The notes under the pieces: model-generated
What the model was told of the DNA's origin: nothing
Database searches by the model: none
The model's input: the letters and a program-made list of their open reading frames with translations, nothing else
NCBI GenBank assembly: GCA_013334825.1
Contig: JAAXWR010000001.1
Location: 139,769 to 203,768 of the forward strand
Length of the DNA stretch: 64,000 bases
Direction of reading: 5' to 3'
From: Candidatus Yonathbacteria bacterium
GTDB lineage: Bacteria; Patescibacteriota; Minisyncoccia; Phycocordibacterales; JACNGX01
Program-made: the position numbers and the translations under genes
In this document: piece after piece, positions 2,455 through 55,520 of the stretch
Layout of the letters: the number at the start of each line of letters is the position of its first letter
Position numbering within the stretch: the stretch's first letter is position 1

Positions 2455-2460
2455 TATACA

Positions 2461-2493
2461 AAAACCACAGATATCTGTGGTTTTTGTTTTTTG
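2461..2493 (+). terminator. rho-independent terminator
   Basis: aaaaccacag-atat-ctgtggtttt hairpin followed by a T-tract. Confidence 0.6.
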
Positions 2494-2529
2494 AAACAAG
2501 ATGCAATCAATAGAAGAGTATGATATTCT

Positions 2530-3267
2530 TTGGGGATGAAAGGAAAAACGTTTGTACATATACACCCTCTTACACGAGTTGTGAATGACGTCGTGCGGGC
2601 GTTTGTCTCACTTGGTTTTGAGGTTGCAGGTGGTCCAGAGATGGAGTCAGCATATTACAATTTTGATAAACTCAATTTCCCCAAGGATCATCCGGCCCGT
2701 GATATGCAGGACACATTTTGGATAAAAGACGTACCCAATACACTCCTCCGTACACATACGTCTCCGGTACAGGCACGGTTTATGGAGGTGCACAAACCAC
2801 CGTTTGCCATTGTTGTGCCTGGAAAAGTGTTTCGCAATGAAGCGACTGATGTGACGCACGAAATGCAATTCTTCCAGATTGAAGGATTGGTTGTGGGAAG
2901 TGATATTACGATGGGACACCTCAAAGGCACACTCGAACACTTTTTGAAGAACCTGTTTGGAAAAGATGTCCCCATCAGATTGCGCCCAAGCTTCTTTCCG
3001 TTCGTTGAGCCGGGTGTTGAAGTGGATATGCAATGCTTTAAGTGTGGCGGTTCGGGATGTGCAACATGCAAAAAGACGGGCTGGATTGAAATACTCGGTG
3101 CCGGTATGGTGCATCCGAACGTGCTTCTTGCCAGCGGTATCGACCCGAAGAAGTGGCAAGGATTTGCATTCGGTATGGGTGTCGATCGTGTGGCTATGCT
3201 TCGGTATGGGATTGATGATGTACGGCTCTTGTACACGGGAGATCTGCGGTTGGTTAGTCAATTTTAG
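2530..3267 (+). CDS. pheS: phenylalanine--tRNA ligase alpha subunit, catalytic core only (N-terminally short, 245 aa)
   Basis: Class-II aaRS motifs [77 protein letters not shown]. The only upstream in-frame ATG (2501) is in another frame and hits a stop. Confidence 0.9.
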
Positions 3268-3441
3268 TACAGACGCGCCTGGCCCGCACCCTTGTGGTGC
3301 TGGGGGACACACGCGGAATAAACGCGAAACATCGCGGAAGAGATACGAATTTCCTAGGGCGATACTGTTCTAAGAACAAATTGGCTGACGAGTTCTCAGA
3401 ATGTATTTAGAGGAAATTATTGGCAATATTTTATTCATTAA

Positions 3442-4311: not shown

Positions 4312-4376
4312 GTTATATATTATGTTTGTTACCGTCTCTATATTCCTAAATTCTAATTTCTAACTTCTTACGTCCT

Positions 4377-6737
4377 ATGCTCGTCTCATACAATTGGCTT
4401 AAAAACTATCTTGGCGACAGTGCGCCGACACCGGAAAAGATTGCGGAGCTTCTTACGCATGGGGCATTTGAGATTGAAGAGATGCGCACAGAGGGGAATG
4501 ATACGCTCATTGATGTGGATGTACTCCCGAACAGGGCGCATGACTGTTTGTGTCACAAGGGTATTGCGTGTGAAATTGCGCATCTCGCGAACATACCGTT
4601 TATCAAAAAATCTGGTGAATCTGTTCCTGTTACGTCCGACAAAACCATTTCTATTGCGGTGGAAGATACTGTTGCGTGCAAACGCTATAGTGTACGAGTC
4701 ATTGAGAACGTGACAGTGACAGACTCCCCGGCATGGCTCAAAGAGCGTCTTACTGCGATCGGACAACGCTCTATCAATACGGTTGTTGATGCCAATAACT
4801 ATACGATGTATGACATGGGACAGCCACTCCATGCCTTTGATATGGATAAACTGGCTGGGGGCATTGTCGTACGCCGTGCCAAAGACGGAGAGTCGCTTAC
4901 GACATTGGATAATAAACAGGTTATACTTTCTTCTGAGGATTTGACGATGTCCGATGGAGAAGGGCTGCTTGCCATTGCCGGTATTAAAGGTGGGAAGAAA
5001 GCCGAGGTAGATGCGCAGACAACAACTATCGTCATTGAATCGGCGAACTTTCTCGGTTCGGCGGTACGGAAAACTTCCGTGCGTACCGGTATTAAGACAG
5101 ATTCTGGAAAGCGTTTTGAAAACGGGCTCACACCAGAAATTGCACATGAAGCGATGGAACAAGTGACGGCGCTTATCTTGGAACTTTCTCCAGGAGCAAA
5201 AGCGGGAGAGATTGTTGATGTATATCCCAAGCGTCCGGCACCGTATCAATGTGGTTTCGCGCTACCTCATGTGAATAAGCTCTTAGGGACAGCATTGTCT
5301 CAGGACGAAATAACACATATCTTAACGCAACTAGAACTTCCGTATAGTGTCGTAGAACATCCACGAGCGCATATCGGAGGGCGGGCGAAAACATGTTTGC
5401 ATACACCGCATAAAATCGGCGCGAGTATTACCTATGATGCTCCACAGGCATTTGATTGTTCGTCGCTTATTGCATATCTCTATGCCGATGCAGGGATGCA
5501 AATACCGCGCATGACGGTTGATCAGTATGTCTTTGGAGAAGAGATTACGAAAGAACAGTTGCAAGAAGGGGATGTTGTCTTTTTCAATTCACAGGATGGA
5601 AATATTTTTTATGAAACAAAAGAATATTTTCCAGGGGTATCTGTTCCCGAAGGTGTTGATCATTGTGGATTGTATATAGGGAATGAACAAATTATTCATA
5701 GCTCACGAAAAAATGGGAGAGTGGCGCAGGAGAGTATGCAGACCATGTCTGAGACGTATACCATTGTCGGATATCGTCGCATGCCACATATTGATGAGAC
5801 ACACGTTGCTGTTACTGTTCCTGCGGAACGTCTTGATATCCGCATCGCTGAGGACTTGATTGAAGAAATCGGTCGTGTGTATGGGTATGACAAGATTGCC
5901 CCGAAAGAGCCGTTCGTGCTTCACTCGCCGACAGTTCTTCCGATATATTATGTATCAAACGCCGTGCGTTCTGTGCTGAACAAAAATGGATGTAGTGAAA
6001 TATACACATCATCATTCAGAAATGTTGGCGATATCGAAGTGCTCTATCCTGCCGCTTCAGATAAAAATTTCTTGCGTACGGATCTCGCGACGAGTATGAT
6101 GGACCGTCTCGCATTCAATGCGCGCAATATGGATTTGTTTGGCATGGACCATATTGTAATGTTTGAAATCGGAAGCGTTTTCACAAAGGCAAAAGGGGAG
6201 CAGGTGCTTCTCTGTATTGGTGCCATGTATCCGCAGATGAAAGAAGGAAAAGCAAAAGAAACAGCGAAAGGATATATGACTGAGATGATGAACTCTCTCT
6301 CAAGCGCGCTTGGGATAGAAGGGGTCGTCTTTTTCTCTGAACAAGAAACAGAAAAAGGGTATGTGGTGGAAATAGACCTCGGCGCACTTTCATCGGAGGT
6401 AACGATTCCTGATACATACGGAGACGTGCTTCTCACTTCCGATACGATGCCCCTCTACAAACCATTTTCCGTGTATCCGTTTATGACACGTGATATTGCC
6501 TTTTGGACTCCCGCAGGAACAAGTGCTGATGAGGCACGCGAAGTTGTCGTCGGAGAAGGGCACCCACTCATTATCCGCACAGATATGTTTGATACATTTG
6601 AAAAAGACGAACGTGTGTCGTATGCGTTCCGTATAGTATTTCAAGCGGTTGATAGAACGCTGACTGATGAGGAAGTGAATGCGGTGATGGAGGGGGTGTA
6701 CGCGCGGGTTGGTGAGAAGGGATGGGAGGGACGCTAG
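4377..6737 (+). CDS. pheT: phenylalanine--tRNA ligase beta subunit lacking the N-terminal OB-fold tRNA-binding domain and carrying an NlpC/P60-like insertion in the B5 domain
   Basis: B3/4 start DVDVLPNRAHDCLCHKGIACEIA, B5 ends DEITHILTQLELP ... VAVTVPAERLDIRIAEDLIEEIGRVYGYDKIAP, and a C-terminal FDX-ACB domain (FRIVFQAVDRTLTDEEV). Between the two B5 halves lies a ~150-aa NlpC/P60-like segment (FDCSSLIAYLYADAGMQIPR ... GDVVFF ... DHCGLYIGNEQIIHSS). Confidence 0.9.
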   Translation: MLVSYNWLKNYLGDSAPTPEKIAELLTHGAFEIEEMRTEGNDTLIDVDVLPNRAHDCLCHKGIACEIAHLANIPFIKKSGESVPVTSDKTISIAVEDTVACKRYSVRVIENVTVTDSPAWLKERLTAIGQRSINTVVDANNYTMYDMGQPLHAFDMDKLAGGIVVRRAKDGESLTTLDNKQVILSSEDLTMSDGEGLLAIAGIKGGKKAEVDAQTTTIVIESANFLGSAVRKTSVRTGIKTDSGKRFENGLTPEIAHEAMEQVTALILELSPGAKAGEIVDVYPKRPAPYQCGFALPHVNKLLGTALSQDEITHILTQLELPYSVVEHPRAHIGGRAKTCLHTPHKIGASITYDAPQAFDCSSLIAYLYADAGMQIPRMTVDQYVFGEEITKEQLQEGDVVFFNSQDGNIFYETKEYFPGVSVPEGVDHCGLYIGNEQIIHSSRKNGRVAQESMQTMSETYTIVGYRRMPHIDETHVAVTVPAERLDIRIAEDLIEEIGRVYGYDKIAPKEPFVLHSPTVLPIYYVSNAVRSVLNKNGCSEIYTSSFRNVGDIEVLYPAASDKNFLRTDLATSMMDRLAFNARNMDLFGMDHIVMFEIGSVFTKAKGEQVLLCIGAMYPQMKEGKAKETAKGYMTEMMNSLSSALGIEGVVFFSEQETEKGYVVEIDLGALSSEVTIPDTYGDVLLTSDTMPLYKPFSVYPFMTRDIAFWTPAGTSADEAREVVVGEGHPLIIRTDMFDTFEKDERVSYAFRIVFQAVDRTLTDEEVNAVMEGVYARVGEKGWEGR

Positions 6738-6780
6738 GCGCGGAAGCAATGCGGAACATACGCAGAACGTCGCGGAAAAA

Positions 6781-9979: not shown

Positions 9980-10092
9980 GGTGATAGGAGATTAGAAGAT
10001 TAAAAATTAGAAATATGGGGCTACGAAGTACGAACTTATACGAACACTACTGAACACGAATAACTATATTGATGAGTTTGTGTTCGTATGTT

Positions 10093-10118
10093 CTCCTGCA
10101 CCACGCGGGGTGCAGGAG
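10093..10118. repeat. REP-like palindrome (copy a, slightly divergent) with TACGAAGTACGAA-type flanking inverted repeats at 10020..10035 and 10129..10145
   Basis: ctcctgcacc-acgcgg-ggtgcaggag. Confidence 0.7.
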
Positions 10119-10151
10119 AAGCGTACTATTCGTACTTCGTAACCAATTAAC

Positions 10152-18448: not shown

Positions 18449-19117
18449 ATGAGCAAAGAATCGTATACCTACACCATTGGCATTGATGAAGCGGGACGAG
18501 GACCTTTGGCGGGGCCGGTGTCTGTGGGTGTGGTGGGCATACCTGCCGAACACCAAAGTGTCGTGGAGGAAATGTTCGCACTTCTTAAAGGGCGAGACTC
18601 AAAAAAATGGTCGGAGAAAAAACGAGAAGAATGGTTCGAAAAAATTTGCGCGGCACGGCATGCCGGACTCATTGTGTTTTCTGGTGTGATGGTTGGCGCG
18701 CGTACTATTGATGAAAAAGGGATTATGTATGCAGTGAAGAGTGCCTTGGCACGAGGACTTGAGCGTCTTGATATGAATCCTCTCCATGTGCGAGTGGTTC
18801 TTGATGGGGGACTTCATGCACCTGCCGTATACGAACATCAAGAGACGATTATCAAAGGTGATGAAAAAGAGATTGTCATTGCAATGGCGTCTATTGTCGC
18901 CAAAGTAACTCGTGACCGACATATGCGTACTCTTGCGGAGAAATATCCCACATACGGATTTGAGGTACACAAGGGATATGGGACAGCGAAGCATTACGCA
19001 GCGATAGAGACATATGGGACATGTGAGGAGCATCGGAGAAGTTTTTTAAAGGGGAGCGGAAACTCGCGGAACGAACGCGGAATGTCGCGGAATTTACACG
19101 GACACAATTGGGGATGA
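18449..19117 (+). CDS. rnhB: ribonuclease HII; the C-terminal ~30 aa are encoded by a GCGGAA-type tandem array
   Basis: YTIGIDEAGRGPLAGPV and the downstream RNase HII motifs; start taken at MSKESY. Confidence 0.8.
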   Translation: MSKESYTYTIGIDEAGRGPLAGPVSVGVVGIPAEHQSVVEEMFALLKGRDSKKWSEKKREEWFEKICAARHAGLIVFSGVMVGARTIDEKGIMYAVKSALARGLERLDMNPLHVRVVLDGGLHAPAVYEHQETIIKGDEKEIVIAMASIVAKVTRDRHMRTLAEKYPTYGFEVHKGYGTAKHYAAIETYGTCEEHRRSFLKGSGNSRNERGMSRNLHGHNWG

Positions 19118-19288
19118 ACACGGATAGACGTGGAATATTTAGGAAGAGAGGTCTAAATTTGCAAAATAAAGATGAAAACAAGAGTAACACTTCTCGGGCG
19201 TCCTCCGCGTTGATCTGCGTTTGTTCAGCATAGCTTCCGCGTAACGCGCTTGCGCGTTGGGACGGTTTCTGCTATAGTATTGCCCACT

Positions 19289-19615
19289 ATGACTGTACGC
19301 ATGCGCCATACGCGCGCTCACACAGGGAACCGTCGTTCCCACCATGCTCTTCAGGCACCGCAGATTTCAACGTGCCCTAATTGTTCTGCTCCGTACATGC
19401 GTCATCGTATGTGCCCGACTTGTGGAACATATCGTGGTCGCGAAGTTGTTGATATGGTTGCCAAGAAAGAACGTTCCATTGAACGCGCGAAGGTAAAGGC
19501 AAAAAGCCGTGGTTTGGACGTACACGAAGCAACTGAAAAAGCAAAGGAGGAGGCAACACCCACAAAGAAGAAATCCACAGCAACCAAAGCCGCATCCAAG
19601 AAAGCAAAGAAATAA
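19289..19615 (+). CDS. rpmF: ribosomal protein bL32 with a ~55-aa lysine-rich C-terminal tail
   Basis: MTVRMRHTRAHTGNRRSHHALQAPQISTCPNCSAPYMRHRMCPTCGTYRGREVV is the L32 zinc ribbon; the tail is KAKSRGLDVHEATEKAKEE...KKSTATKAASKKAKK. Confidence 0.8.
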   Translation: MTVRMRHTRAHTGNRRSHHALQAPQISTCPNCSAPYMRHRMCPTCGTYRGREVVDMVAKKERSIERAKVKAKSRGLDVHEATEKAKEEATPTKKKSTATKAASKKAKK

Positions 19616-19687
19616 CATGATATACTGGAGCAAGCGGCGTACATTGACCGCTTGTCCGTTTATCAGTACTCATCGTTCTTTTTTACA

Positions 19688-20584
19688 ATGGCAAATCGAC
19701 ATCTCTGCAGAAGTATCGTCATGCAATCCCTCTTCGAGTGGGATTTTGGTGGTTGTACTGCCGACCTCGAAGAAATCGTCAAGCGTAATGCCGCGGAGTT
19801 TGCTCCCGGTATTCCCGATACTGACTTTATGGTAACGCTTGCGCAAGGTATTGCAGACAAGCGTGCCAAGATTGACGAAGTGATTGTTGCCGCCGCTCCT
19901 GAATGGCCGATTGAGAAAATTGCGGTCCTTAACCGCACTATTTTGCGAATTGGATTGTTCGAACTTCTTTTTGGTGATAGAAAGGAAGTCCCACCAAAAG
20001 TTGCTATCAATGAAGCCATCGAACTTGCGAAATCTTTTGGTGGAGATTCTGGGAGTCGCTTTGTGAATGGTGTACTTGGTGCTGTGTATCGCGAAATGGG
20101 CGAGCCAGGCAAGGATCAAACAAGCAAAAAGAAAGAGCCGATTGATATTACTAAACTTCCCATCGATCGTCTCATTGGAGCTGTTGTATATACTAAGACA
20201 GGGAACGGTGTTAAACTCGCTCTTCTCCGTGACGTTTTTGGTAAATGGACGCTTACCAAAGGACATCTCAAAGATGAGGAAACAGATACAGATGGTGTTG
20301 TACGCAAAGCACTTGATGAAATGGGTGCTGTTATCATCGAAGTCAAAGACCTTCTGGGTGAGAATGAATACCTTGCGAATACAGAAGATGGTGGTAAGTT
20401 GCGCAAACAGGTACGCTATTTCCTCGCGGAAGCAAAAGATGGTGATCTTCGTCCCGGTGAATCTGGAGGTATTGCGGATGCAAAATGGTTTACTCTTCCT
20501 GAAGTGATTGACCTTACTATGTATGACGATATTCTTCCAATTGTTACAAAGGGTGTAAATATTCTCCTTGGTAAATCGTCGTAG
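19688..20584 (+). CDS. nusB: NusB antitermination factor fused to a C-terminal NUDIX hydrolase domain
   Basis: N-terminal half has LNRTILRIGLFELLF and KVAINEAIELAKSFGGDSGSRFVNGVL (NusB). C-terminal half has GKWTLTKGHLKDEETDTDGVVRKALDEMGAVI (Nudix box Gx5Ex7R[KE]xxEExG) and the rest of the Nudix fold. Confidence 0.8.
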   Translation: MANRHLCRSIVMQSLFEWDFGGCTADLEEIVKRNAAEFAPGIPDTDFMVTLAQGIADKRAKIDEVIVAAAPEWPIEKIAVLNRTILRIGLFELLFGDRKEVPPKVAINEAIELAKSFGGDSGSRFVNGVLGAVYREMGEPGKDQTSKKKEPIDITKLPIDRLIGAVVYTKTGNGVKLALLRDVFGKWTLTKGHLKDEETDTDGVVRKALDEMGAVIIEVKDLLGENEYLANTEDGGKLRKQVRYFLAEAKDGDLRPGESGGIADAKWFTLPEVIDLTMYDDILPIVTKGVNILLGKSS

Positions 20585-20663
20585 TTTTTATTTTTTGTAT
20601 TTTTATTTTTTAAATTTTTATATCTTTTCTTTCTAACCTCTTTCCTAATTCCTTTCTCCCCGT

Positions 20664-21380
20664 ATGACTTCCCCTATCAATCCTGATATTTGTGATACAT
20701 TTGAAAAACGCGCGGGCGTCGCTTTTGTTGATAAGATGTTGTTGCAACAAGCGTTCACACATCGTTCATATTTGAATGAGCATGTGGATTTGCCACATAC
20801 GCATAATGAACGTCTTGAATTTCTCGGCGATGCTGTCCTTGAATTATCTGTAACGGATTTCTTGTACAGAACGTATCCTCAAAAAACAGAAGGTGATTTG
20901 ACGGCATATCGCGCCGCCCTTGTGAATACCATAAGCATTTCAAACGCTGCAAAAGATCTTCGTATGGATGAATGTCTTCTCCTTTCACGTGGAGAAGCAC
21001 GCGGAACAGAAAAAGCGCGTCAATATATTTTGGCGAACACATTTGAAGCAGTGATTGGCGCAATTTATTTGGACCAAGGGTATGCTGCTGCGGATGCGTT
21101 TATTAATCGTCATTTGACGCCATACATAGCCGAAGTTATTAAACGTCGTCTCTGGCAAGATGCGAAAAGTTATTTTCAAGAGCGCGCGCAAGATGAAGTT
21201 GGTATTACTCCCTCATACAGTGTTCTTGAAGAAGTAGGACCTGATCATGATAAAGAGTTTACTGTTGGGGTATATTTGGGCAACGAACTTGTTGCTAAAG
21301 GGACAGGACGTTCCAAGCAAGACGCGGAGCAAGAAGCAGCAAATAAAGGGCTCGATGCAAAAGCATGGAGAAAGGAATAG
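20664..21380 (+). CDS. rnc: ribonuclease III
   Basis: HRSY, ERLEFLGDAVLEL, and a C-terminal dsRBD. Confidence 0.9.
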   Translation: MTSPINPDICDTFEKRAGVAFVDKMLLQQAFTHRSYLNEHVDLPHTHNERLEFLGDAVLELSVTDFLYRTYPQKTEGDLTAYRAALVNTISISNAAKDLRMDECLLLSRGEARGTEKARQYILANTFEAVIGAIYLDQGYAAADAFINRHLTPYIAEVIKRRLWQDAKSYFQERAQDEVGITPSYSVLEEVGPDHDKEFTVGVYLGNELVAKGTGRSKQDAEQEAANKGLDAKAWRKE

Positions 21381-21483
21381 TAGACGCGGAAGTTATGCGG
21401 ATCAGACGCGGAACCTACGCTGAAATAGTCCGGAAGTTTGCAAGCAAACTTCCGCACACTGGTATCTGTACAATATCTAAAAC

Positions 21484-22978: not shown

Positions 22979-23020
22979 TGAATCAAGAATCAAGAATCAA
23001 GAATCAAGAATCAAGAATCA
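22979..23020. repeat. perfect 7-bp tandem repeat (GAATCAA) x6
   Basis: gaatcaagaatcaagaatcaagaatcaagaatcaagaatc read directly; a member of the dispersed GAATCAA/GAATCAC/GAAGCAA family. Confidence 0.85.
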
Positions 23021-23241
23021 AGAATCTGCTACAGATTAAGTATGACAGGTGGGGGATAAAAACACAAGTGAAGTTTTTGAATGCTCTTTCTTTTTATATT
23101 CCTAATTTCTAGATTCTAATTTTTTCGTCAATTTCTTGATTCTTGCTTCGTGATTCGTGCTTCGCTTTCATCTGTATCTATGAGCCTTTCTCACTACACA
23201 CTAACACCTCACGCAATAATTCTGTTATAATACATCCACTC

Positions 23242-25509: not shown

Positions 25510-25725
25510 GGCGAGTTGTCAGTTTCAAGTTGCAAGTTTTCAGACACTATGTGCCTGCTCCGCATCCTGGGGTACTGTGGGATCAGACGCGACCATGTAC
25601 CACATAGGATGCATGATGGAAATATCTCGGGTCTTATGGGAAGAACTGAAGTCTTGGGAGACGAGGTAGTTTTTAGAACAAATATATAGCGCACCATACA
25701 TAGGCACTTCTTTTTTTTGCAAACA

Positions 25726-27280: not shown

Positions 27281-27308
27281 AGAATTCGTTTACCTCCGTT
27301 CAGTATTC

Positions 27309-29390
27309 TTAATTCTTGCTTCGTGATTCTTGATTCTCGTCTACCACTTCCATATCAAGGACGCGTGCGTCCAAATCTGCGCGGACGATGCGGATACGAA
27401 TGGGGTCGCCCAAGCGATAGCGTTTTTTGGTACGTTCTCCGATGATGGCATATTGTTTCTCATCAAGATTAAAAAAGTCATTACCGAGATCACGAATATG
27501 CACCAGTCCTTCCGCTCGCGTTTCTTTTTCTTCCACGTAAATACCAAATTTTGTTACACCAGAAATCGTGCCATCAAATTCTTCGCCGACATGACTTTGC
27601 ATGTATTCTACTTGTTTGTATTTGATAGATGCACGCTCGGCGTCCGCGGCATGCTTTTCCATCTCGGACGCATAGCGACTCATCGCTTCGTATGAATCAC
27701 GTTCCGTGTCTTTGACTGTGCCTCCTGAAAGGTGTGTTGCGAGGAGCCGGTGCACCATGACGTCGGGGTACCGACGAATGGGAGAGGTAAAGTGTGTGTA
27801 GTGTTCAAATGCAAGTCCAAAGTGCCCGATATTTCCCGTCGCATACACTGCCTTTGCCATGGAACGTATGGCTGCCGTAGTGATGAGTTGCTCTTCGGGC
27901 GTGCCTTTGACCTGCGCGAGGAGTTTGTTGATATCACGAGAGTTGGCACCCTGTTCGCCGATGGGCAATTCATATCCAAGTGTTTTTACAAACGTTGCGA
28001 GTTCGCGGAGACGGTCAGCATCGGGGACATCGTGAATACGATACACAAATGTCTTTTCCATGCCTTTGTCTTTGGCACCAATCCATTCCGCCACCCGCTT
28101 GTTGGCGAGAAGCATGAAGTCTTCAATGAGCTTGTGTGCGTCGAGACGCTCTTTGACATACACACCGAGTGGCTTGCCGTGTTCATCAAGATGAAAACGC
28201 ACCTCGTCTTTATCAAAAGAAATCGCGCCTTTGGCGAAACGTTCCTTTTGAAGGATATGCGCGAGCGTGTTGAGCGTGATGAGTGTGTCGCGAAGTGTGT
28301 CATCTTTCCCGTCAATAATCTCTTGGGCTTCTTCATAGGCAAAACGGCGGTCCGAGTGAATGACTGTTCTGCCAAACCACTCGTCCACAATTTCGGCACG
28401 ACCATGGGCGAGCGCATCAGCAGAAAACGTGAATATTGCCGAGAACGCAAGCTTGTCTTCGTTTGGGTTGAGACTACAGAGATCATTGGAGAGTACTTCG
28501 GGAAGCATCGGTATGGTGCGGTCTACGAGATAGACTGATGTGCCACGACGCGCGGCCTCTTTGTCGAGGGCAGTACCGGGGACAACGTAATGCGCAACAT
28601 CAGCGATGTGTACGCCCACTTCAATCGTTCCATCAGCAAGCGTTTGAAATGACAATGCATCATCAAAATCTTTGGCATCCGCAGGGTCAATGGTACAGGT
28701 GAGTACACCGCGCATGTCACGTCGGCGAGCAATTTCTTCGTCCGTAATGACACGGGCAATGGCATCTGCTTCACGTTCTACTTCTTCGGGAAAATCGGGG
28801 ACAATGCCTTTTTCAAGAGCAATGGCACGCATCTCCGCGTCATTGTCTCCTTTCATACCGATGCGTTCAATGACTGTGCCGACGGGATTGCTTCGTGGGT
28901 CGCGCCATTCTCCGATGCGAACATATACTTTTTCACCATCAGCAAGTGACGCGCTTTCTTGTTCAGGAATAATGATATCGCGATATACACGCTGATCGTC
29001 GGGGATGATAAAGACAATACCTTGTTCGCGAGAAACCGTCCCAACGAATTGTGTTTTTGCGCGAGTAACAACCGCAGAAACAGTACCAAAGAGTTCCTCT
29101 CCCTCACGGTGGGGAAGGAGAGAGATAGTAACAATATCGCCATGAAGAGCAGTATTTAAGTCATCTGTCTCGATACGAATACGTTCATCACGATTGTCGG
29201 GAGAGAGGAGTACATAACCGACACCTTTGCCAGTAATAGAGATGACACTCTCAAGTTCTGTGGGAAGAGGTCCTTTGGGAACAAATGCGCGTGGGTTGGG
29301 TCGGTCTGTACGACGAACAGGACCGCGGGATTGTCCATGCGCGGAAGCCCCGTGCGGATTCTTGTTGTTTGGTTGATGGTGTTGTGTCAT
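27309..29390 (-). CDS. rnr: ribonuclease R
   Basis: Cold-shock/OB N-terminus, RNB catalytic domain (TIDPADAKDFDDALSF), and a C-terminal S1 domain. Start taken at MTQHHQ because the ORF-track N-terminus is read-through of a repeat region. Confidence 0.88.
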   Translation of the reverse strand: MTQHHQPNNKNPHGASAHGQSRGPVRRTDRPNPRAFVPKGPLPTELESVISITGKGVGYVLLSPDNRDERIRIETDDLNTALHGDIVTISLLPHREGEELFGTVSAVVTRAKTQFVGTVSREQGIVFIIPDDQRVYRDIIIPEQESASLADGEKVYVRIGEWRDPRSNPVGTVIERIGMKGDNDAEMRAIALEKGIVPDFPEEVEREADAIARVITDEEIARRRDMRGVLTCTIDPADAKDFDDALSFQTLADGTIEVGVHIADVAHYVVPGTALDKEAARRGTSVYLVDRTIPMLPEVLSNDLCSLNPNEDKLAFSAIFTFSADALAHGRAEIVDEWFGRTVIHSDRRFAYEEAQEIIDGKDDTLRDTLITLNTLAHILQKERFAKGAISFDKDEVRFHLDEHGKPLGVYVKERLDAHKLIEDFMLLANKRVAEWIGAKDKGMEKTFVYRIHDVPDADRLRELATFVKTLGYELPIGEQGANSRDINKLLAQVKGTPEEQLITTAAIRSMAKAVYATGNIGHFGLAFEHYTHFTSPIRRYPDVMVHRLLATHLSGGTVKDTERDSYEAMSRYASEMEKHAADAERASIKYKQVEYMQSHVGEEFDGTISGVTKFGIYVEEKETRAEGLVHIRDLGNDFFNLDEKQYAIIGERTKKRYRLGDPIRIRIVRADLDARVLDMEVVDENQESRSKN

Positions 29391-29531
29391 AGGGGCAGTA
29401 TAGCAGAAAATGTGAAATAGGGAACACGAACGCCGTGTACGGACGAGAAGCAAGAAGCATGAATACGAAAGATGAATGAAGAAATATGAAATTAGAAATA
29501 TGGAGTTACGAAGTACGAACTTGTACGCTTG

Positions 29532-29556
29532 CCCTGCACCCCACGTGGTGCTAGGG
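29532..29556. repeat. REP-like palindrome (copy b, inverted orientation, with the B flank gttacgaagtacgaacttgtacgcttg)
   Basis: ccctgcacc-ccacgt-ggtgctaggg. Confidence 0.7.
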
Positions 29557-29739
29557 AACATACGAAACAAGACGGGAAGCACGAATCAAGAATCAAGAAG
29601 CAAGAATACGAGACGTGAATTATGAATAATGAATTAAGAATTATGGGACGGACGAGGGGTTAGAAATTAGAAATTAGGAAAATGGGGCTACGAAGTACGA
29701 ACCAATACGAATAAATAACACTCCTTTTTAGTTGTCATT

Positions 29740-29935
29740 CCGGGCTTGACCCGGAATCCAGAGTAAAAAGGATACTACACTACTACGTGGATGCTGAATC
29801 ACCTTCCTTCGCCAAGGCTTCGGCAGGGCAATGAGTTCAGCATGACAACACATGGTCGTAAATAGTTTCTCTTTGGGATTCGCTGTTCTGAGAAATGGGT
29901 CCCGCCCTTTGCAAGCAAAGGGCGGGACGTCTGAG
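29740..29935 (+). ncRNA. candidate structured RNA or leader upstream of rpsP (identity unknown)
   Basis: Nested complementary segments: gttgtcat...atgacaac, ttccgggc-ttga-gcccggaa, gctgaa...ttcagc, cccgcccttt-gcaagc-aaagggcggg. No ORF. Confidence 0.25.
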
Positions 29936-31878: not shown

Positions 31879-32111
31879 CTTATAGAAATTTTTATTGACA
31901 TATATACCATATAAACGTACTCTATGTGTGTAAGTGTTTTCTTTCGAGGGTAATTTTTTCGGTATTCTTTTCTGCCTTAATTCTGTATCAGTCTCGTATA
32001 GTTTTCGTATTGTTCCCGCGTTCGTTTTGCGAATTTCCGCGTCTCATCCGCATTGTTTCTGCGATGTTCCGCGTTTGATCCGCATCGTGTCCGTGTAGGT
32101 TCCACATAGGT

Positions 32112-32789
32112 ATGCATTTTCACTTTATCACCATTTTCCCGAATATGTTTACGGACTATATGCATGAGTCCGTGCTTGGTCGTGCAACGAAACAGGGTGT
32201 ACTCGACTTTTCTGTATACGATGTAAGAGACTTTGCAAAAAATAAATGGAACAAGATTGACGACCGCCCATATGGTGGCGGTCCGGGCATGGTGATGGAA
32301 GCAGCGCCAATACTTGCCGCGGTGAAAAAAGCGATAGGGAAGAAGGATAGAAAAAAAATAAAGATTGCTATCATGGCCCCACGAGGGACACAATTTACCA
32401 ATGAACTTGCGCGGAAGTGGGCAAACAAATACGACCATGTGATTCTTATTGCGGGCAGATATGAGGGGATTGATTCTCGTGTAAAAAAGATACTGCGTGC
32501 TGAAGAAGTATCTATCGGTCCCTATGTCGTGACAGGCGGAGAATTGCCTGCGCTTCTTATTGCCGATGCTGTGGCACGTCAAGTCTCTGGAGTGCTCGGG
32601 AAAGGGGAATCGCTCGAAGAGACGCGCGTGTCATCGGGAGAAATGTATACACGTCCAGAAGTGCTTGAGTATGAAGGTAAGAAGTATAAAGTTCCCAAGG
32701 TGCTTCTTTCAGGTGACCCGAAGAAAATAGATGCATGGAAGCTGGACGCGGAACAAATGCGGAACAAACGCGGAAACTCGCGGATCTGA
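32112..32789 (+). CDS. trmD: tRNA (guanine37-N1)-methyltransferase; the last ~15 codons are a GCGGAA tandem array
   Basis: FITIFPNMF, RPYGGGPGMVM, and a SPOUT knot. Confidence 0.88.
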   Translation: MHFHFITIFPNMFTDYMHESVLGRATKQGVLDFSVYDVRDFAKNKWNKIDDRPYGGGPGMVMEAAPILAAVKKAIGKKDRKKIKIAIMAPRGTQFTNELARKWANKYDHVILIAGRYEGIDSRVKKILRAEEVSIGPYVVTGGELPALLIADAVARQVSGVLGKGESLEETRVSSGEMYTRPEVLEYEGKKYKVPKVLLSGDPKKIDAWKLDAEQMRNKRGNSRI

Positions 32790-33051
32790 TGTGGAAGAAA
32801 TATGAAGTTCTTAGAGTAAGACTGTTCTTCCACGACGTCTCCGCTACGCGGAGCGCGCGGGTCCGCCCATTGTGATGTGCAGATAAACAATATCAAAATA
32901 AAAAATTCAAATGCTTTAAACGCTCGTGTTTTAGTCTTTGAATGTTGGTGATTGGAATTTGTTTAGGATTTAGTGCTTAAGATTTCGATTTTTTATATGG
33001 GTATACGCAGATTGTTTCTATAGAATATATATCGTATCCACACACATTGTA

Positions 33052-34164: not shown

Positions 34165-35379
34165 TTGTATATGTTATTTACCTATAAAATTATTACGCAA
34201 GATGGCGAAGAGAAAGAAGGCTCAATTGATGCAGTGAGTCGCGATGTTGCGATTGCGTCGCTTCAGCGTCGTGGTTTTATCATTGTGTCACTTTCTGAAA
34301 GTGATGAAGGAGGGAGTCTTTTTGGAAAAGAGATTTCTCTTTTTCCCCGTGTGTCAAATAAAGATGTAGTCATGCTGTCACGTCAAATAGCAACTTTATT
34401 TGATGCACATGTATCGGCTCTTCGTGCGTTTCGTCTTCTTGCAACAGAAATGGAGAATCCATTCCTTTCGAAGACGCTCATTGAAGTTTCTGATGATATT
34501 CAGGGAGGCGTTTCTTTATCAAAAGCACTTTCTCGTCACACAGAAGTGTTTTCTGAGTTTTATGTAAACATGGTAAAGGCAGGTGAAGAATCAGGAAATC
34601 TCAATCAGACATTTTTATATTTGGCAGATTATCTTGATCGTTCATACGAACTGACATCAAAGACGAAAAATGCATTGGTGTACCCAACATTTGTTGTTGT
34701 AACGTTCGTTGTTGTTATGACACTGATGCTCACTATGGTTATTCCGAAACTCTCTGCTATTTTGACAGAAACAGGACAGGAAGTTCCTGCATACACAAAA
34801 GCTGTTCTTGCTGCAAGTTCGTTTCTTACTACATATGGTCTCTTTTTTCTCGTTTTGTTAATAGGAGGAGGAATTATGCTTTGGCAATATGGACGAACAG
34901 AACAAGGAAAATTGACATTTGCTCGCATAAGGCTTGAAACGCCATATCTTGGAAATTTATATACAAAGTTGTACTTGTCACGTATTGCCGACAATATGAA
35001 TACGATGTTGTCCTCCGGAATTTCTATGGTTCGTGCAATTGAAATTACATCAACTGTTGTAGGAAATGAAGATTATCGTCAGGTGTTGATGAAGGTATCT
35101 GAAGCGGTGAAGTCTGGCTCGGCTCTTTCCTCTGCAATGGAACAATATCCTCAAATGCCGACGATTCTTGTGCAAATGATTCGTGTTGGTGAAGAAACGG
35201 GAGAGCTCGGTGAAATTTTAAAGACACTTGCCGCGTTTTATAAACGTGAAGTAGATAATGCTGTTGATACGCTTGTGGGTCTTATTGAACCAATTATGAT
35301 CGTCATGCTTGGTCTTGGTGTGAGTATTCTTCTCGCTTCAGTTCTTGTGCCGATTTACAACATTACCGCGGGTATATAG
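34165..35379 (+). CDS. pilC: type IV pilus / type II secretion platform protein (GspF/PilC family)
   Basis: Two T2SSF repeats (LSKALSRHTEVFSEFYVNMVKAGEESGNL and LSSAMEQYPQMPTILVQMIRVGEETGEL) and 3 TM helices. Confidence 0.85.
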   Translation: MYMLFTYKIITQDGEEKEGSIDAVSRDVAIASLQRRGFIIVSLSESDEGGSLFGKEISLFPRVSNKDVVMLSRQIATLFDAHVSALRAFRLLATEMENPFLSKTLIEVSDDIQGGVSLSKALSRHTEVFSEFYVNMVKAGEESGNLNQTFLYLADYLDRSYELTSKTKNALVYPTFVVVTFVVVMTLMLTMVIPKLSAILTETGQEVPAYTKAVLAASSFLTTYGLFFLVLLIGGGIMLWQYGRTEQGKLTFARIRLETPYLGNLYTKLYLSRIADNMNTMLSSGISMVRAIEITSTVVGNEDYRQVLMKVSEAVKSGSALSSAMEQYPQMPTILVQMIRVGEETGELGEILKTLAAFYKREVDNAVDTLVGLIEPIMIVMLGLGVSILLASVLVPIYNITAGI

Positions 35380-35593
35380 TTTTGGTAAAAAGAATTTGAG
35401 ATTTTTCGAAATCATTCGGAATGAGTTTTAAGTGTGTCCTGTATCCTACATGGTATATGATAACGAAGTGTTGAGTTGCGAGTGACAAGAAGAAACAGGA
35501 TGAGTTTCAAGAATACTTACGAATAACGAATATTTACGAATATACGAATACTCCCTGTTTTAGTACATATGCCACTTGTGTCATTCGTACATT

Positions 35594-35618
35594 CCCCAGC
35601 ACCACATAGGGTGCGGGG
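35594..35618. repeat. REP-like palindrome (copy c)
   Basis: ccccagcacc-acatag-ggtgcgggg. Confidence 0.65.
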
Positions 35619-35684
35619 CAGGCGTACACATTCGTTATTCGTATGCTTATATTTCTTCATTCATCTTTCGTATTCGTACTTCTC

Positions 35685-35760
35685 TGCACTGTACACCACG
35701 TAGGATGCACGGCACGCCATGCGGGGTGCAGGGCAAGCGTACAAGTTCGTACTTCGTAAC
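35685..35760. repeat. REP-like element (copy d; degenerate double palindrome plus B flank gcaagcgtacaagttcgtacttcgtaacc)
   Basis: ...gcggggtgcagggcaagcgtacaagttcgtacttcgtaacc. Confidence 0.65.
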
Positions 35761-35887
35761 CCCATATTCCTAACCCTCAATTTTATATTTCTTCATGCAT
35801 GTTCCGTTTCGTATTCTTGATTCGTGCTTCTTGATTCCCGTCTCGTTTCGTATGTTCGTACAAGTTCGTACTTCGTAATCCTTTATT

Positions 35888-35911
35888 CCCTGCACCACGT
35901 AGGGTGCAGGG
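35888..35911. repeat. REP-like palindrome (copy e, consensus, with the C flank cgagtgtccgtccctataacc)
   Basis: ccctgcacc-acgtag-ggtgcaggg. Confidence 0.8.
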
Positions 35912-35998
35912 CACGCTTGATTCGAGTGTCCGTCCCTATAACCTATATTCTCTAACCTATTTCCTAGTTTCTTATCCACAGACGAAAACCCTTGACTA

Positions 35999-36026
35999 TT
36001 TGACAATTTTCGTATACGCGCTATAC
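35999..36026 (+). promoter_or_regulatory. candidate sigma70 promoter of rpoB, implying a ~230-nt structured leader
   Basis: TTGACA (35999..36004), 16 nt, TATACT (36021..36026). Confidence 0.4.
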
Positions 36027-36256
36027 TAACGCAACGATTGGGTTTACGGAGAATACGACGTTACCAAGAACGCCCTTTTTGGGCAACTGCCTTCACAGGC
36101 AATGCAAGGTTGATGCATCTCCGCACGTTATAACTTAATACATCGCACAGAGGCAAGATGACTTGTCTTTCTTTTCGTTCGTGATGTGTTGTGACGTATT
36201 CTTGTTTCAGACGTCCGTCTCTTTTTATTCATAGTTTTTATACAGTATTTGTATCT

Positions 36257-39200
36257 ATGGCGATCACACAAAAACAATTTTCACGGTTCAAGAAACCGCT
36301 CGTCGAGATGCCAAACTTGATGGAAAATCAGTTGGCGTCTTTTGAATGGTCCAAAACTGATGGACTCAAGGAAGTGTTTGAGGAGTTTTCTCCCATTGTT
36401 GATTATTCAGGAAAGAAATTTGAATTGTCATTTGAAAAGTTTGAAATTGCGGAGCCGAAATACGATGAACATGAGGCAAAAGTGAATGAAGCGACCTATG
36501 AAGCACCACTCAAGGTGTGGGTCAAACTCAAGAATAAAACTCTTGGCACGGAAAAAGAGCAAGAGATGTTTATGGCGGATATTCCGCTTATGACCGCGCA
36601 TGGTACGTTTATCATCAACGGTGTTGAACGTGTTGTTGTTCCTCAGCTTGCGCGTAGTTTTGGTGTGATGTTCACCGCGGACGAAATCAAAGGAAACAAA
36701 TATTTTGGTGCGAAGATTATCCCTGCGCGTGGTGCATGGGTTGAATTTGAATCCGATCCTGACGGCATGATTTCCGTGCGTATCGACAAGAAACGCAAGG
36801 TCCCTGTCACATCATTTCTCCGTGCATTTGCTGAAGGTGCAAATGAAAAAGAAATTATTGCTGCGTTTAAAAAAGATGCACCTCGCGATATTGTGGAAAA
36901 ATGTTTTGAAAAAGATCCGGCAAAATCCACTGAAGATGCATTTATTGAAATATACAAACGCCTTCGTGATGGTGAAATGGCCGCTGCGGGAAACGCGCGC
37001 GATTTTGTGAAGGGTATGTTTGGAAAAGAGAAATATGACCTTTCTCCTGTGGGACGTTTTCGTATCAATAAACGTTTCGGAAAAGAGACGGGAGAAAAAG
37101 CAATTCGCGCGAATCGCGTTCTTTCGTTTGATGATATTGTCTCTGTCATTTCGTATATTGTTGAACTCAACAGTACGCCGGATGCCGAACCAGATAATAT
37201 TGACCACTTGGGTTCTCGTCGTGTTCGTTTTTATGGTGAAATGATGCAAGCCAAAGTGCGTGTAGGTATGACGCAGATGAAGCGTAATATTCAAGATCGT
37301 ATGTCCACGGTTGATTCAGACACGACGCTTCCCGTGAATCTCATTTCTCCACGTCCACTCCAAGCCCGTATCAAAGAGTTTTTCACAACCAACCAACTCT
37401 CCCAGTTTATGAACCAGGAGAATATTTTAAGTGAGGTAGAACACTTGCGTACACTTTCTGCGCTCGGTCCGGGAGGTTTGACACGTGAACGTGCAGGTCT
37501 TGAAGTTCGTGATGTACACCCGTCTCACTATGGACGTGTGTGTCCCATCCATACGCCAGAAGGTCCGAACATTGGTCTCATCGTCCATCTTTCTGTATAC
37601 GCGCGTATCAATCCGTTCGGTATGATTGAAACACCTTATGCGAAAGTCGTGAATGGTGTTGTCACAAAAGAAATTGTCTATCTCGATGCATTTGAAGAAG
37701 AACAGTATGCTATCACGCATGCCGCGACTCCTGTGGATGAAAAGGGAAATATTGTTCTTGATCGTGTTGCTGTTCGTCGTAAAAATGGACGTCCAGAAAT
37801 GGTCTCACGTACCAGTGTTGATTTTATTGATGTAGCGCCGAACCAAGCATTTTCTGTTGCCACATCAATGATTCCGTTTCTTGAACACAATGACGCCAAC
37901 CGTGCGCTTATGGGTTCGAACATGCAAAAACAAGCTATTCCCTGCGTGCGTCCTGAAGCGGCACTTGTCGCGACAGGCATTGAAGAGCGTGCCGCGCGTG
38001 ATACAGGACGTCTGGTTATCGCCGAAGAAGCAGGCACGGTGACGGTTGCTGACGCGCGTCGCATTGTGGTAAAAGGAGAAAAGAAAGACCACACGTACAA
38101 GCTTCTCAACTATGTGCGTACCAACAGCTTTACAGGCTTGCACCAACGTCCAATTGTATCAGTAGGAGACAAGGTAAAGAAAGGACAAGTGATCGCTGAT
38201 ATGTCATCGTCCAAAGATGGGCAAATGGCGCTCGGACAAAACGTCCGCATCGCGTTTATGCTTTGGGATGGTGCAAACTATGAAGACGCTATCATCATTT
38301 CCGACCGTCTTGTTCGTGAAAATAAATTCTCCAATATTAAAATTGAAGAATTTGTTGCCAAGGTGCGGGAGACAAAACTCGGTCCCGAAGTAACGACGCA
38401 TGATATTCCTAATGTCGGTGAAGCCAAGCTCAAAGATCTCGATGAGGAAGGTATCATCCGTATTGGTGCTGAAGTTGAACCAGGTGATATCTTGGTTGGA
38501 CGTATCACGCCCAAAGGTGAAACTGAACTTACTGCTGAAGAGAGACTTCTTCGTTCTATTTTCGGTGACAAAGCACGTGATGTCAAAGACACGTCACTTC
38601 GCATGGAACACGGTAAACGTGGACGTGTCATTGGTGTAAAAGTCTTTTCTCGTGAACGTGGCGACAATCTTGATTCAGGTATTTTGAAACAAATTCACGT
38701 GGAAGTTGCAAGTCTCCGTAATCTTTCCGTTGGTGACAAGCTTGCGGGACGCCACGGAAACAAAGGTGTTGTTTCGCGTATTCTTCCTGCTGAAGAAATG
38801 CCATTCGACAAAGATGGTGTTCCGGTAGATATGATTTTGACACCACTTGGTGTACCGTCTCGTATGAACCTTGGTCAGATTCTCGAACTTCACTTGGGTA
38901 TGGCTGCTCACACGCTTGGATATCAGGCGATTGTGCCGACATTCCTTGGTGCGACCGAAGATGAAATTAAAGACGAATTGGTGAAAGCTGGTTTTGAAGA
39001 AGATGGAAAAACCCAACTCTTTGACGGACGCACGGGTGAACCATTTGCTCAAAAGACATCTGTCGGATACATGTACATGCTCAAATTGAACCACATGGTC
39101 CAGGACAAGATTCACATGCGTTCTATTGGTCCATACTCACTTATTACTCAGCAACCTCTCGGAGGAAAAGCGCAAGAAGGAGGACAGCGTTTTGGAGAAA

Positions 39201-50632: not shown

Positions 50633-50707
50633 CTATTGGAATGATTGACCAACACATATTGAGATTTAGTTTATTTCTAACTTCCTAATCTCCTAACCTC
50701 CTATCCT

Positions 50708-51358: not shown

Positions 51359-51382
51359 CCCTGCACCACGTAGGGTGCAGGG
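51359..51382. repeat. REP-like palindrome (copy f, consensus, with the C flank cgagtgtccgtctctataacc)
   Basis: ccctgcacc-acgtag-ggtgcaggg. Confidence 0.8.
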
Positions 51383-51484
51383 CACACGTGCTTCGAGTGT
51401 CCGTCTCTATAACCCATCACCTCTGACCTCTTTCCTACATTTGTCTGTCCTTATAACCTCTCAACTTCTAATAACCCGCCTTCT

Positions 51485-52315: not shown

Positions 52316-52495
52316 AGTGTGATAAGAGATGAAATAACAATAATGAGTAACGCTTTACAGTGTACTACGAGAGAAGTGTTTGAACAATGTGTATGAACAA
52401 AGAGATGAATGTATCGGTTTATTGTGTATAAAAAAGGAATACACAACACCCCGCGGTAAAGCGGGGCATTGTGTATATTTGTCGTAAAAATGTTG

Positions 52496-55128: not shown

Positions 55129-55301
55129 AAGTGAATTTTTAGGAAATAGGTTATAGGGATAGACATCCGAATCAAGAATCACGAAGCATGAATCAAGAGT
55201 ACGAAAGATGAATGAAGAAATATGAATATACGAATAACGAATGTGTACGAATATACGAATAAAAAGCTCATTCTACACGTGTTATATATCATTCGTATGT
55301 T

Positions 55302-55326
55302 CCCTAGCACCACATGGGGTGCAGGG
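55302..55326. repeat. REP-like palindrome (copy g, with the B flank caagcgtataagttcgtacttcgtaacc)
   Basis: ccctagcacc-acatgg-ggtgcaggg. Confidence 0.7.
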
Positions 55327-55520
55327 CAAGCGTATAAGTTCGTACTTCGTAACCAATCTTTGTCATCCTGAACATGATTTTAGATCCACGGAGAAACTGT
55401 TAAAACGTGGATTCTGGGTCATCTTTTTTCAGCAAGTTAAAAAGTCTAACAGGACAAGGATGGGAAGACTTGATAAATAAAAAGTATACAGCATAATTTT
55501 TTCCAGTAACCAGTAACACC

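Follow-up and report, generated by a model that had tools for sequence, protein, structure and literature searches.

Short palindromic hairpin repeats in the gene spacers of a Candidatus Yonathbacteria genome: probable copies of a very small non-autonomous mobile element

Short palindromic hairpins recur in the spacers between the genes of a 64-kb stretch of DNA (hereafter the window) from a metagenome-assembled genome (MAG) of Candidatus Yonathbacteria, a lineage of the Parcubacteria within the candidate phyla radiation (CPR), or Patescibacteria. In this work we analysed the structure, distribution and variation of these repeats. The window has a GC content of about 44% and carries the core genes pheS, pheT, gyrB, thrS, dnaE, nusB, rpsP, trmD, rpoB, rpoC, dnaG and rpoD, those of RNase HII, RNase III, RNase R and SMC, and pilB-like and pilC-like genes, together with suf genes and ABC/MacB transporters. 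The cumulative GC skew climbs across the whole window, which indicates that the plus strand is the G-rich strand.

Eleven hairpin units were found in eight spacers, which separate housekeeping genes, and none lies inside a gene; the count includes the outer shell of a nested copy. An earlier note on this DNA had listed seven sites of a dispersed intergenic palindrome. All seven are present where it had placed them, and the intergenic character of the family holds for all 11 units. A covariance model, trained on 114 family members and run on the window with filters off, recovered these seven sites at 31-44 bits, with matches placed at 10092, 29530 (minus strand), 35593, 35687, 35886, 51357 and 55301, and added copies at 25591-25618, 35435-35462 (minus strand) and 3280-3306 (minus strand). 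The 16-nt core GCACCACRYRGGGTGC occurs at eight places with at most two mismatches, against 0.08 expected from shuffled sequences, and the full 24-mer gives four matches with at most three mismatches (0.00 expected).

The recurring unit is longer than the 24 bp described earlier. It measures about 28-29 nt and is composed of a 9-bp stem, a 6-nt loop (ACRYRG) and a 4-5 nt tail (GCARG), the tail variants of the window units being CAAGC, CAGGC, CACGC and GAAGC. Stems range from 9 to 11 bp around a loop of 6 nt, with DNA folding energies of -7.8 to -12.3 kcal/mol, and the consensus folds as single-stranded DNA at -10.7 kcal/mol (z = -4.1). The top of the stem (CACC...GGTG) and the loop are conserved in the unit, and the lower stem covaries. 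The perfect 9-bp stem first attributed to the element is found in copies a, e and f (11 bp in a), whereas copies b, c and g each have one stem mismatch, with or without a G-T pair. The units are the following.

3277 to 3304, minus strand: solitary unit of 28 nt between pheS and the next gene, inside a GCGGAA-type repeat; the minus strand reads CCCAGCACC-ACAAGG-GTGCGGG, with tail CCAGGC; the covariance-model match, at 3280-3306 on the minus strand, scores 14.5 bits.
10093 to 10122, plus strand: unit a, cTCCTGCACC-ACGCGG-GGTGCAGGA with tail GAAGC and an 11-bp stem, 34.1 bits; it lies 30 nt beyond the thrS stop in the convergent gyrB/thrS spacer, its DNA fold reaches -12.3 kcal/mol (z -4.95), and its closing T-A pair is a compensatory change relative to the C-G of other copies.
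25591 to 25618, plus strand: degenerate unit with core GTACCACATAGGATGC in the convergent spacer between the SMC and MFS genes, 28.4 bits.
29527 to 29556, minus strand: unit b, ahead of the RNase R gene in a divergent spacer shared with rpsP; the minus strand reads CCCTAGCACC-ACGTGG-GGTGCAGGG with tail CAAGC, 35.9 bits.
35435 to 35462, minus strand: decayed old copy, altered by transitions; the plus strand reads CCTGTATCC-TACATG-GTATATG, 21.5 bits (E 6e-4).
35594 to 35623, plus strand: unit c, CCCCAGCACC-ACATAG-GGTGCGGGG with tail CAGGC, 38.1 bits.
35682 to 35738, plus strand: unit d, outer hairpin, CTCTGCAC and CATGCGGGGTGCAGGG on either side of the inner unit, with tail CAAGC; the outer remnant scores 10.6 bits.
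35690 to 35717, plus strand: unit d, inner hairpin, TGTACACC-ACGTAG-GATGCACGG with tail CACGC, 31.2 bits.
35888 to 35915, plus strand: unit e, the consensus copy, CCCTGCACC-ACGTAG-GGTGCAGGG with tail CACG, 44.2 bits; its full 28 nt are CCCTGCACCACGTAGGGTGCAGGGCACG (DNA fold -10.7 kcal/mol, z -4.1).
51359 to 51392, plus strand: unit f, with the same hairpin as unit e and a longer tail, CACACGTGCT, 44.2 bits.
55302 to 55331, plus strand: unit g, between a HlyD-like gene and an ABC ATPase gene, CCCTAGCACC-ACATGG-GGTGCAGGG with tail CAAGC, 34.4 bits.

Ahead of rpoB, where three copies had been counted, there are actually four recognisable units and a decayed one. The supposed degenerate double at 35685-35760 is really a nested insertion: the inner unit splits the outer hairpin, which consists of 35682-35689 and 35718-35738, after the GCAC of its 5' arm. 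No clusters of alternating orientation and no inverted doublets were seen in the window, where only solitary units, one nested pair and same-strand neighbours occur.

Indications of mobility came from relatives of this genome. Contigs and loci used for comparison are designated by L and a number. Close relatives (L114-L119 and L121-L137) come from the same lake populations and are about 92% identical in shared genes, and the Yonathbacteria MAG L120 is a distant relative (about 78% identical). They were retrieved through protein identity and a DNA pattern, and amount to about 250 kb with redundancy. The site of unit e (35888-35915) shows one clean gap of 28 nt in L114-L118, which read ...ttaatt^cttgattcgag... 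(here and below, ^ marks the position of the hairpin). Exactly the 28 nt of unit 3277-3304 form a single gap in the orthologous spacer of L120. At the site of unit b (29527-29555) 29 nt are absent from L128, where the uninterrupted site is gtac^gaaca. For unit f, the spacer of the relatives keeps one of the flanking modules described below, module C, unbroken (ttcttgatt^cgaatgtctgtcc) and without a hairpin. This last difference lies in an otherwise rearranged spacer, and is therefore suggestive and less clean than the event at unit e. No target-site duplication was found at any of the presence/absence events compared.

Other copies differ between relatives as parts of larger blocks. The decayed copy at 35435-35462 lies within an 80-nt block missing from L114, which also lacks a block of about 110 nt containing unit c. 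Unit c was found again with identical flanks on contigs L121, L122, L124, L130 and L133-L136. The nesting position of unit d is repeated in L126:7270, L129:3898 and L132:4792, and L114 retains a shortened version at this site. The hairpins of units e and f are identical although they lie 15 kb apart, and units b and g, flanks included, show 97% identity across 62 nt. The same strain has also been assembled independently from short reads (L112), and that assembly stops exactly within the repeat.

The modular flanks B and C, with which the copies were first described, are real repeats. They are not parts of the element, since both also occur without a hairpin (35842-35880; 10019-10034 and 29686-29701, both on the minus strand; L114:2596-2660). 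They are a pre-existing, AT-rich spacer context with 7-nt periodicity, outside the mobile unit. Representative stretches are as follows.

35842 to 35880, plus strand: class-1 target module (module B), unoccupied, tttcgtatgtt^cgtacaagttcgtacttcgtaatc.
35916 to 35966, plus strand: class-2 target module (module C), ttgattCGAGTGTCCGTCCCTATAACC...

The empty module at 35842-35880 aligns in register with the filled ones at 35723-35761 and 55316-55354, and the class-2 module is hairpin-free in L114:2636-2690. The clean blocks and this empty paralogue together define the mobile unit as the hairpin plus a tail of 4-5 nt (GCAAG, GCAGG or GCACG). The clear solitary copies of the lineage are all preceded by TT (TT^C), with the exception of the one at 3277-3304; the site has the form TT^CG(T/A), and most of them stand at TATGTT^CGTA or TTGATT^CGAG.

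Most spacers of the window appear as AT-rich mosaics of 7-nt periodicity, with GAATCAA repeated eight times and runs of TTCGTAY, TTCTTGA and TTCATCT (22979-23025, 27303-27350, 29447-29660, 35623-35690, 35783-35880 and 55160-55262). They occur in both orientations, grow and shrink between strains and have hairpins inserted inside them, and they recall the heptameric short tandemly repeated repetitive (STRR) sequences of cyanobacteria. A second repeat family consists of G-rich GCGGAAC-type units spaced by about 10-11 nt (3303-3340, 6729-6776, 19056-19103, 21375-21422 and 32737-32796; reverse complement at 32044-32096), which directly follow the stops of pheS, pheT, trmD and the genes for RNase HII and RNase III. 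The 40-nt pair 18349-18388/32830-32869 is 98% complementary, contains a small hairpin (CTCCGC-GTA-GCGGAG) and may represent a further palindromic family. Finally, a 62-nt dispersed repeat (51123-51184/55363-55424, 87% complementary) has an internal ATCCACG/CGTGGAT stem and a related stretch near 29780-29850; it adjoins hairpin copies f, g and b and has no match in Rfam.

A sigma-70-like promoter, TTGACA-16-TATACT, lies ahead of rpoB at 36000-36027. An rpoB leader or attenuator was rejected, as the units sit upstream of this promoter and vary between strains. Intrinsic terminators were rejected as well, as no U-tract follows the hairpins (tails GCAAGCGTAC and similar), and a terminator scan of 35300-36300 picked only sites other than the hairpins. 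The hairpins ahead of rpoB are passengers of the spacer and not a regulatory device of this gene. A search of Rfam 15 with the window, the rpoB spacer and 18-19 related loci gave no match at gathering thresholds, only noise at E values up to 1. The start of rpoB itself was placed at GTG 36191 by mechanical calling of open reading frames (ORFs), and the gene calls of relatives (1094 aa) point to ATG 36257.

The family reaches beyond the window; confinement to it had been named in the earlier note as a sign of local duplication only. At least 10 additional hairpin sites were found in the same population, others in many phyla, and a scan with CNNGCACCACRYRGGGTGCNGG, using one genome per species, yielded at least 111 loci. 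The matches listed comprise a low-GC set of 81 hairpins in 80 loci and a high-GC set of 33 hairpins. The latter, from Streptomyces and others, are without exception located within long ORFs, three of the loci (L002, L015 and L029) being one orthologous gene; we took them for chance or coding matches and left them aside. The low-GC hairpins are mostly intergenic or at gene edges, and come from many lineages of Patescibacteria, Thermodesulfobacteriota and 'delta' MAGs, Planctomycetota, low-GC gammaproteobacterial MAGs and others. In other phyla, a second, inverted hairpin of the same type usually follows after 1-7 nt, as in the doublets of repetitive extragenic palindromes (REPs) known as REPINs. 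This second hairpin has the loop CYRYGT, and GAACC/GGTTC often replaces GCACC/GGTGC in it. The tail of the Yonathbacteria solitary units corresponds to the spacer between the paired hairpins (GCARG).

Covariation strongly supports the stem. Among 114 distinct hairpins, 84.6% of cells are paired, against 75.9% in shuffles, and double-change cells number 122, compared with 44.5. None of 500 shuffles attained the covariation score of 0.248 (0.096 in shuffles), and slid stem registers gave 31-53% pairing. The pair formed by columns 6 and 23, which the search pattern leaves unconstrained, shows all four Watson-Crick types, with UA 58 times, CG 18, AU 9 and GC 6. Conservation of the sequence itself is seen in the four pairs at the top of the stem and in the loop (ACGTAG > ACGTGG > ACATAG). 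An asymmetry between G-T and A-C mismatches, considered as a sign of a strand-specific structure, is dominated by a stem-end position in one phylum.

One contig, L138 (IMGVR_UViG_3300033489_000052), is a Mu-like prophage with MuA-like rve, MuB-like AAA, GemA and Gam genes. It bears at least nine family hairpins, some nested or concatenated, between genes and just ahead of ribosome-binding sites. In a Planctomycetales MAG (L077:5687-5760) hairpins lie inside an ORF that is open across the 8-kb locus (at least 2666 aa), and may be an in-frame intragenic insertion.

In other lineages the hairpins are associated with tRNA genes. Among the matches listed, 14 of the 81 low-GC hairpins have a tRNA or tmRNA gene no more than 150 nt away, where tRNA density predicts about 3%, an enrichment of approximately 6-fold. 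Hairpin pairs split the T-loop at GTT^...^CGA(A/T)TC in L022, L054, L079, L094 and L104, the anticodon loop in L070, L042, L140 and L141, and the D-arm in L051, L094, L145, L033 and L028. The Yonathbacteria target and the tRNA T-arm read as follows.

Yonathbacteria target sequence: TATGTTCGTACAAG.
tRNA T-arm sequence: GGTTCGAATCC.

At several loci the hairpins are part of a cassette, in the order tRNA 5' fragment, hairpin pair, ORF of about 85 aa and complete tRNA. This order was seen in L070, L042, L051 and L067, and in degenerate form in L094. The ORF begins 9-23 nt past the hairpin pair, and its product is a GIY-YIG catalytic domain on its own (PF01541, E about 1e-16). Hairpin pairs form the left boundary regularly and are present on both sides in about half of the cassettes. 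When the ORFs near hairpins were clustered, no dominant neighbour family emerged except this small GIY-YIG protein.

To avoid circularity, eight GIY-YIG homologues were sampled through a protein database search. A tRNA gene or fragment lies beside the GIY-YIG gene in all eight loci; according to aragorn the tRNA gene is complete in seven, and L142 has a fragment only. The order tRNA fragment, hairpins, GIY-YIG gene and tRNA was found in at least four (L141, L145, L147 and L155). A family hairpin lies within 100 nt in three of the eight (L140, L141 and L145), and the rest carry variant hairpins. A family hairpin pair abutting a PF01541 ORF and a tRNA gene or fragment was seen in L042, L051, L067, L070, L094, L140, L141 and L145. 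The named homologues in the database are nearly all from Patescibacteria, with single entries from an Omnitrophica and a Pseudomonadota MAG, and none was found in viral contigs. The cassette is absent from the window, which contains neither a tRNA gene nor a GIY-YIG ORF, and the units of the window share only the hairpin with the cassette. In the literature, as far as our incomplete coverage goes, we found no description of the hairpin family or of a GIY-YIG/hairpin/tRNA cassette, and a literal search for the sequence gave one irrelevant match.

Two arrangements were noted in passing. In a Saccharibacteria MAG (L040:5255-5681) a tmRNA gene call of unusual length encloses a family hairpin at 5321-5342, and two GIY-YIG genes lie between tRNA genes 1.7-2.5 kb away. 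In an Omnitrophica MAG a GIY-YIG/tRNA-Gln cassette is flanked by two tRNA-synt_1c genes of the GlnRS/GluRS type (L147:215-1266 and 2147-3258; 350 aa and >562 aa), a run of N making the arrangement uncertain.

From these observations we consider that each palindrome is probably a copy of a mobile DNA element that is very small (about 28-29 nt), non-autonomous and mobilised in trans. Among the roles proposed in the earlier note, that of a non-autonomous mobile element agrees best with the clean presence or absence of 28-29 nt, the nested copy, the identical unlinked copies and the contig break within the repeat. Several points weigh against this conclusion. Each event may be an insertion or a precise deletion, as no outgroup spans the polymorphic sites. 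Long flanks are common to several copies (b with g, e with f, and the c-type copies), and some of the spread may thus be due to whole spacer modules that moved or recombined, and not to the 28-nt unit. The preference for TT is bound up with the T-rich module context, and the unit at 3277-3304 follows TC. An orientation bias relative to neighbouring genes (about 13 sense to 2 antisense) would also fit a role at the RNA level. Genes for a GIY-YIG protein, a REP-associated tyrosine transposase (RAYT) or another transposase were not found in the window or in the roughly 250 kb of the relatives. The adjacency of GIY-YIG genes and hairpins could reflect an independent preference of both for tRNA genes, and we know of no GIY-YIG nuclease that catalyses strand transfer.

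The alternative that fares best, although we regard it as rather unlikely, is that the repeats are classical REPs or REPINs moved by a RAYT (a Y1 HUH enzyme, akin to the TnpA of IS200/IS605) encoded elsewhere in the genome, which would bind the single-stranded hairpin, cut beside it and act by peel-and-paste at the replication fork. The likeness to REPs and bacterial interspersed mosaic elements (BIMEs) pointed out earlier stands as far as the small, non-autonomous extragenic palindrome is concerned: the units are 24-29 nt long, have a GC-rich stem, reach a high copy number and contain a GTAG-like tetranucleotide, and the inverted doublets of many other genomes look like REPINs. They are also gained and lost cleanly, without target duplication, and lie 3' of a short motif, three traits which are hallmarks of IS200/IS605-type transposition. 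Eight of the 11 window units carry the ACGTAG strand on the G-rich strand, the direction expected for insertion into the lagging-strand template, a bias that is not significant.

REPs are known from several phyla, Planctomycetes among them, and are marked by a GTAG (or CGTC) tag that stays unpaired at one end of their stem-loop (Di Nocera et al. 2013, PMC3733652). Here, in contrast, the RYRG or GTAG motif lies inside the loop (CACC-ACGTAG-GGTG) and not at the stem foot, the unit ends being TT^C... and ...GCARG, and the window has no alternating clusters. The apex of the hairpin is nearly identical across phyla, whereas REPs are normally lineage-specific, and the association with tRNA genes and fragments is strong. 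The gene recurrently found beside the hairpins codes for a GIY-YIG nuclease and not for a RAYT. As already reported for the window, Pfam scans of its ORFs revealed no RAYT-type gene; no TnpA- or TnpB-like ORF was detected there or in the DNA of the relatives. A phmmer search for a Y1-like ORF, a weak test with an E. coli RayT sequence as query, found nothing in the window, the relatives or about 565 kb around the 81 low-GC hairpins. Our best reading is that the behaviour is REP/REPIN-like, yet the repeats are not demonstrated REPs, and the mobilising enzymes named below are candidates only.

Other known systems share some of these features. Like IS200/IS605 elements and their miniature derivatives, the palindrome-associated transposable elements (PATEs), the units are hairpin-dependent, insert 3' of a short sequence without duplicating it and are lost precisely. 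The units may plausibly also prefer DNA that is single-stranded or looped, given the insertions in tRNA loops and hairpin tops. Unlike these elements, which have two different subterminal hairpins and at least 100 nt, the unit is a single 24-nt hairpin, and no tnpA or tnpB gene was seen here. The small dispersed repeats (SDRs) of the Nostocaceae, reportedly described by Elhai and colleagues in 2008 and mentioned in PMC5861425, are said to be intergenic, hairpin-forming sequences of 21-27 nt that lie within tandem heptamer repeats, may be nested and were recognised as insertions between related genomes. To our knowledge they have no associated transposase, are reported only in the Nostocaceae and have not been linked to tRNA genes or GIY-YIG proteins. 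The Yonathbacteria units resemble them in measuring less than 30 nt, in forming hairpins, in nesting, in their location within heptamer repeats and in their variation between relatives. They differ in belonging to another phylum, in spanning several phyla and in the tRNA/GIY-YIG link, and their sequence is apparently unrelated, the SDRs having been compared by description only.

Free-standing GIY-YIG homing endonucleases of the Seg type occur in phage T4, and fungal mitochondria contain mobile double-hairpin elements and endonuclease inserts. As in these systems, a small GIY-YIG ORF lies here beside or in a conserved multi-copy target gene and leaves a partial duplicate of its target, with hairpin pairs at the junctions. 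The cassette protein differs in consisting of a catalytic domain alone (about 85 aa), with no DNA-binding domain, and no such gene is present in the window. Homing alone cannot account for the dispersal of 28-nt solitary units, unless the repeated modules act as homology.

It is improbable, in our view, that the hairpins are host-functional RNA or DNA elements, such as protectors of mRNA ends, processing sites or protein-binding sites, spread by selection and by recombination of modules. In favour of this reading, compensatory changes keep the stem, the loop is conserved, most copies are in sense orientation relative to a neighbouring gene, and the prophage copies of L138 stand just ahead of ribosome-binding sites. 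A precedent is provided by E. coli, whose REPs act as elements of the 3' untranslated region according to a preprint (bioRxiv 10.64898/2026.03.23.713779). However, strains about 92% identical differ in whether they carry the hairpins, cleanly at three aligned sites and suggestively at a fourth, which speaks against a local function that the cell needs. Some copies are nested or decayed, others break tRNA loops and leave tRNA fragments, and both orientations are found in co-directional spacers (3277-3304; L130). There is no U-tract and no Rfam match, and the units of the rpoB spacer lie upstream of its promoter.

A by-product of local duplication or replication slippage, with no dedicated machinery, is highly improbable: the spacers are indeed repeat-rich tandem 7-nt-periodic mosaics that clearly expand and contract, but copies of the hairpin, with its covariation, lie at sites that are not linked and extend to other contigs and phyla, the indels match the hairpin unit exactly, and one insertion (3277-3304) lies in the unrelated GCGGAA-type repeat.

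We propose that the hairpin would fold in single-stranded or extruded DNA and serve as the cis site for an enzyme, a nuclease or a transposase, that is encoded elsewhere in the genome and acts in trans. The enzyme would cut a short T-loop-like target, into which the hairpin would be copied by peel-and-paste or by break repair, the latter using a filled copy of the repeated target as template. The Yonathbacteria solitary units may then correspond to the first hairpin and the inter-hairpin spacer of a pair, all else having been lost. Peel-and-paste by a Y1/HUH enzyme, as in REP/RAYT and IS200/IS605, would explain why duplications are absent, why insertion takes place 3' of a short target and why loops are preferred, but no Y1/HUH gene was seen in the DNA searched. 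Alternatively, a GIY-YIG nuclease could break tRNA loops or TTCGTAT-type modules, which would be repaired from a filled copy. This would explain the physical linkage, the tRNA fragments as debris of co-conversion and the restriction of solitary units to repeated modules, but it needs an activity that the GIY-YIG family is not known to have. We infer that the GIY-YIG protein is the best candidate by association and a Y1/HUH enzyme (RAYT- or IS200-like) the best by mechanistic precedent, and rate the former slightly ahead as the partner.

A wider interpretation is possible, if doubtful: the hairpin may be the cis-acting end of an undescribed, cross-phylum class of prokaryotic mobile element, existing as an autonomous cassette and as stripped 28-nt solitary units. 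The autonomous form would be the cassette bounded by hairpin pairs, with its minimal GIY-YIG nuclease and a replacement tRNA, and would enter tRNA genes at their loops, such as the T-loop at GTT^CGA. A nuclease would trigger the copying of solitary units into any TT^CG site that resembles a T-loop, and these units would, if this is true, rank among the smallest mobile DNAs known.

Further features of the window and its relatives lie apart from the hairpins. Pyrimidine-rich leaders of the TTCTAA/CCTAA type directly precede start codons, with no obvious Shine-Dalgarno sequence, at 4339-4376, 20620-20663, 50660-50707 and, on the minus strand, 9982-10020; other genes of the window, such as that at 16107, show a clear GGAGG. 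Relative L115 carries a 2.1-kb insertion (18737-20854) with two small unannotated ORFs between DsbA-like and SIMPL genes, which is missing from the window (52316-52495) and from L114.

Genomes of CPR/Patescibacteria are usually called streamlined and repeat-poor, whereas here the spacers of a genome of the 1-Mb class are actively remodelled by a 28-nt hairpin, an element at the lower size limit for mobile DNA. In practice, short-read assemblies of these MAGs are interrupted at such repeats, which also provide strain-level markers. The conservation of the stem top and loop across distant phyla contrasts with lineage-specific REP/RAYT pairs, and implies a conserved partner protein that spreads horizontally. 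The element plausibly belongs with the miniature mobile palindromes and may be linked to a new kind of autonomous element. How orphan mini-repeats move has been a question since the cyanobacterial SDRs and the CGTC-REPs were described without a transposase, and the association with tRNA loops and a minimal GIY-YIG protein offers a testable candidate for an answer.

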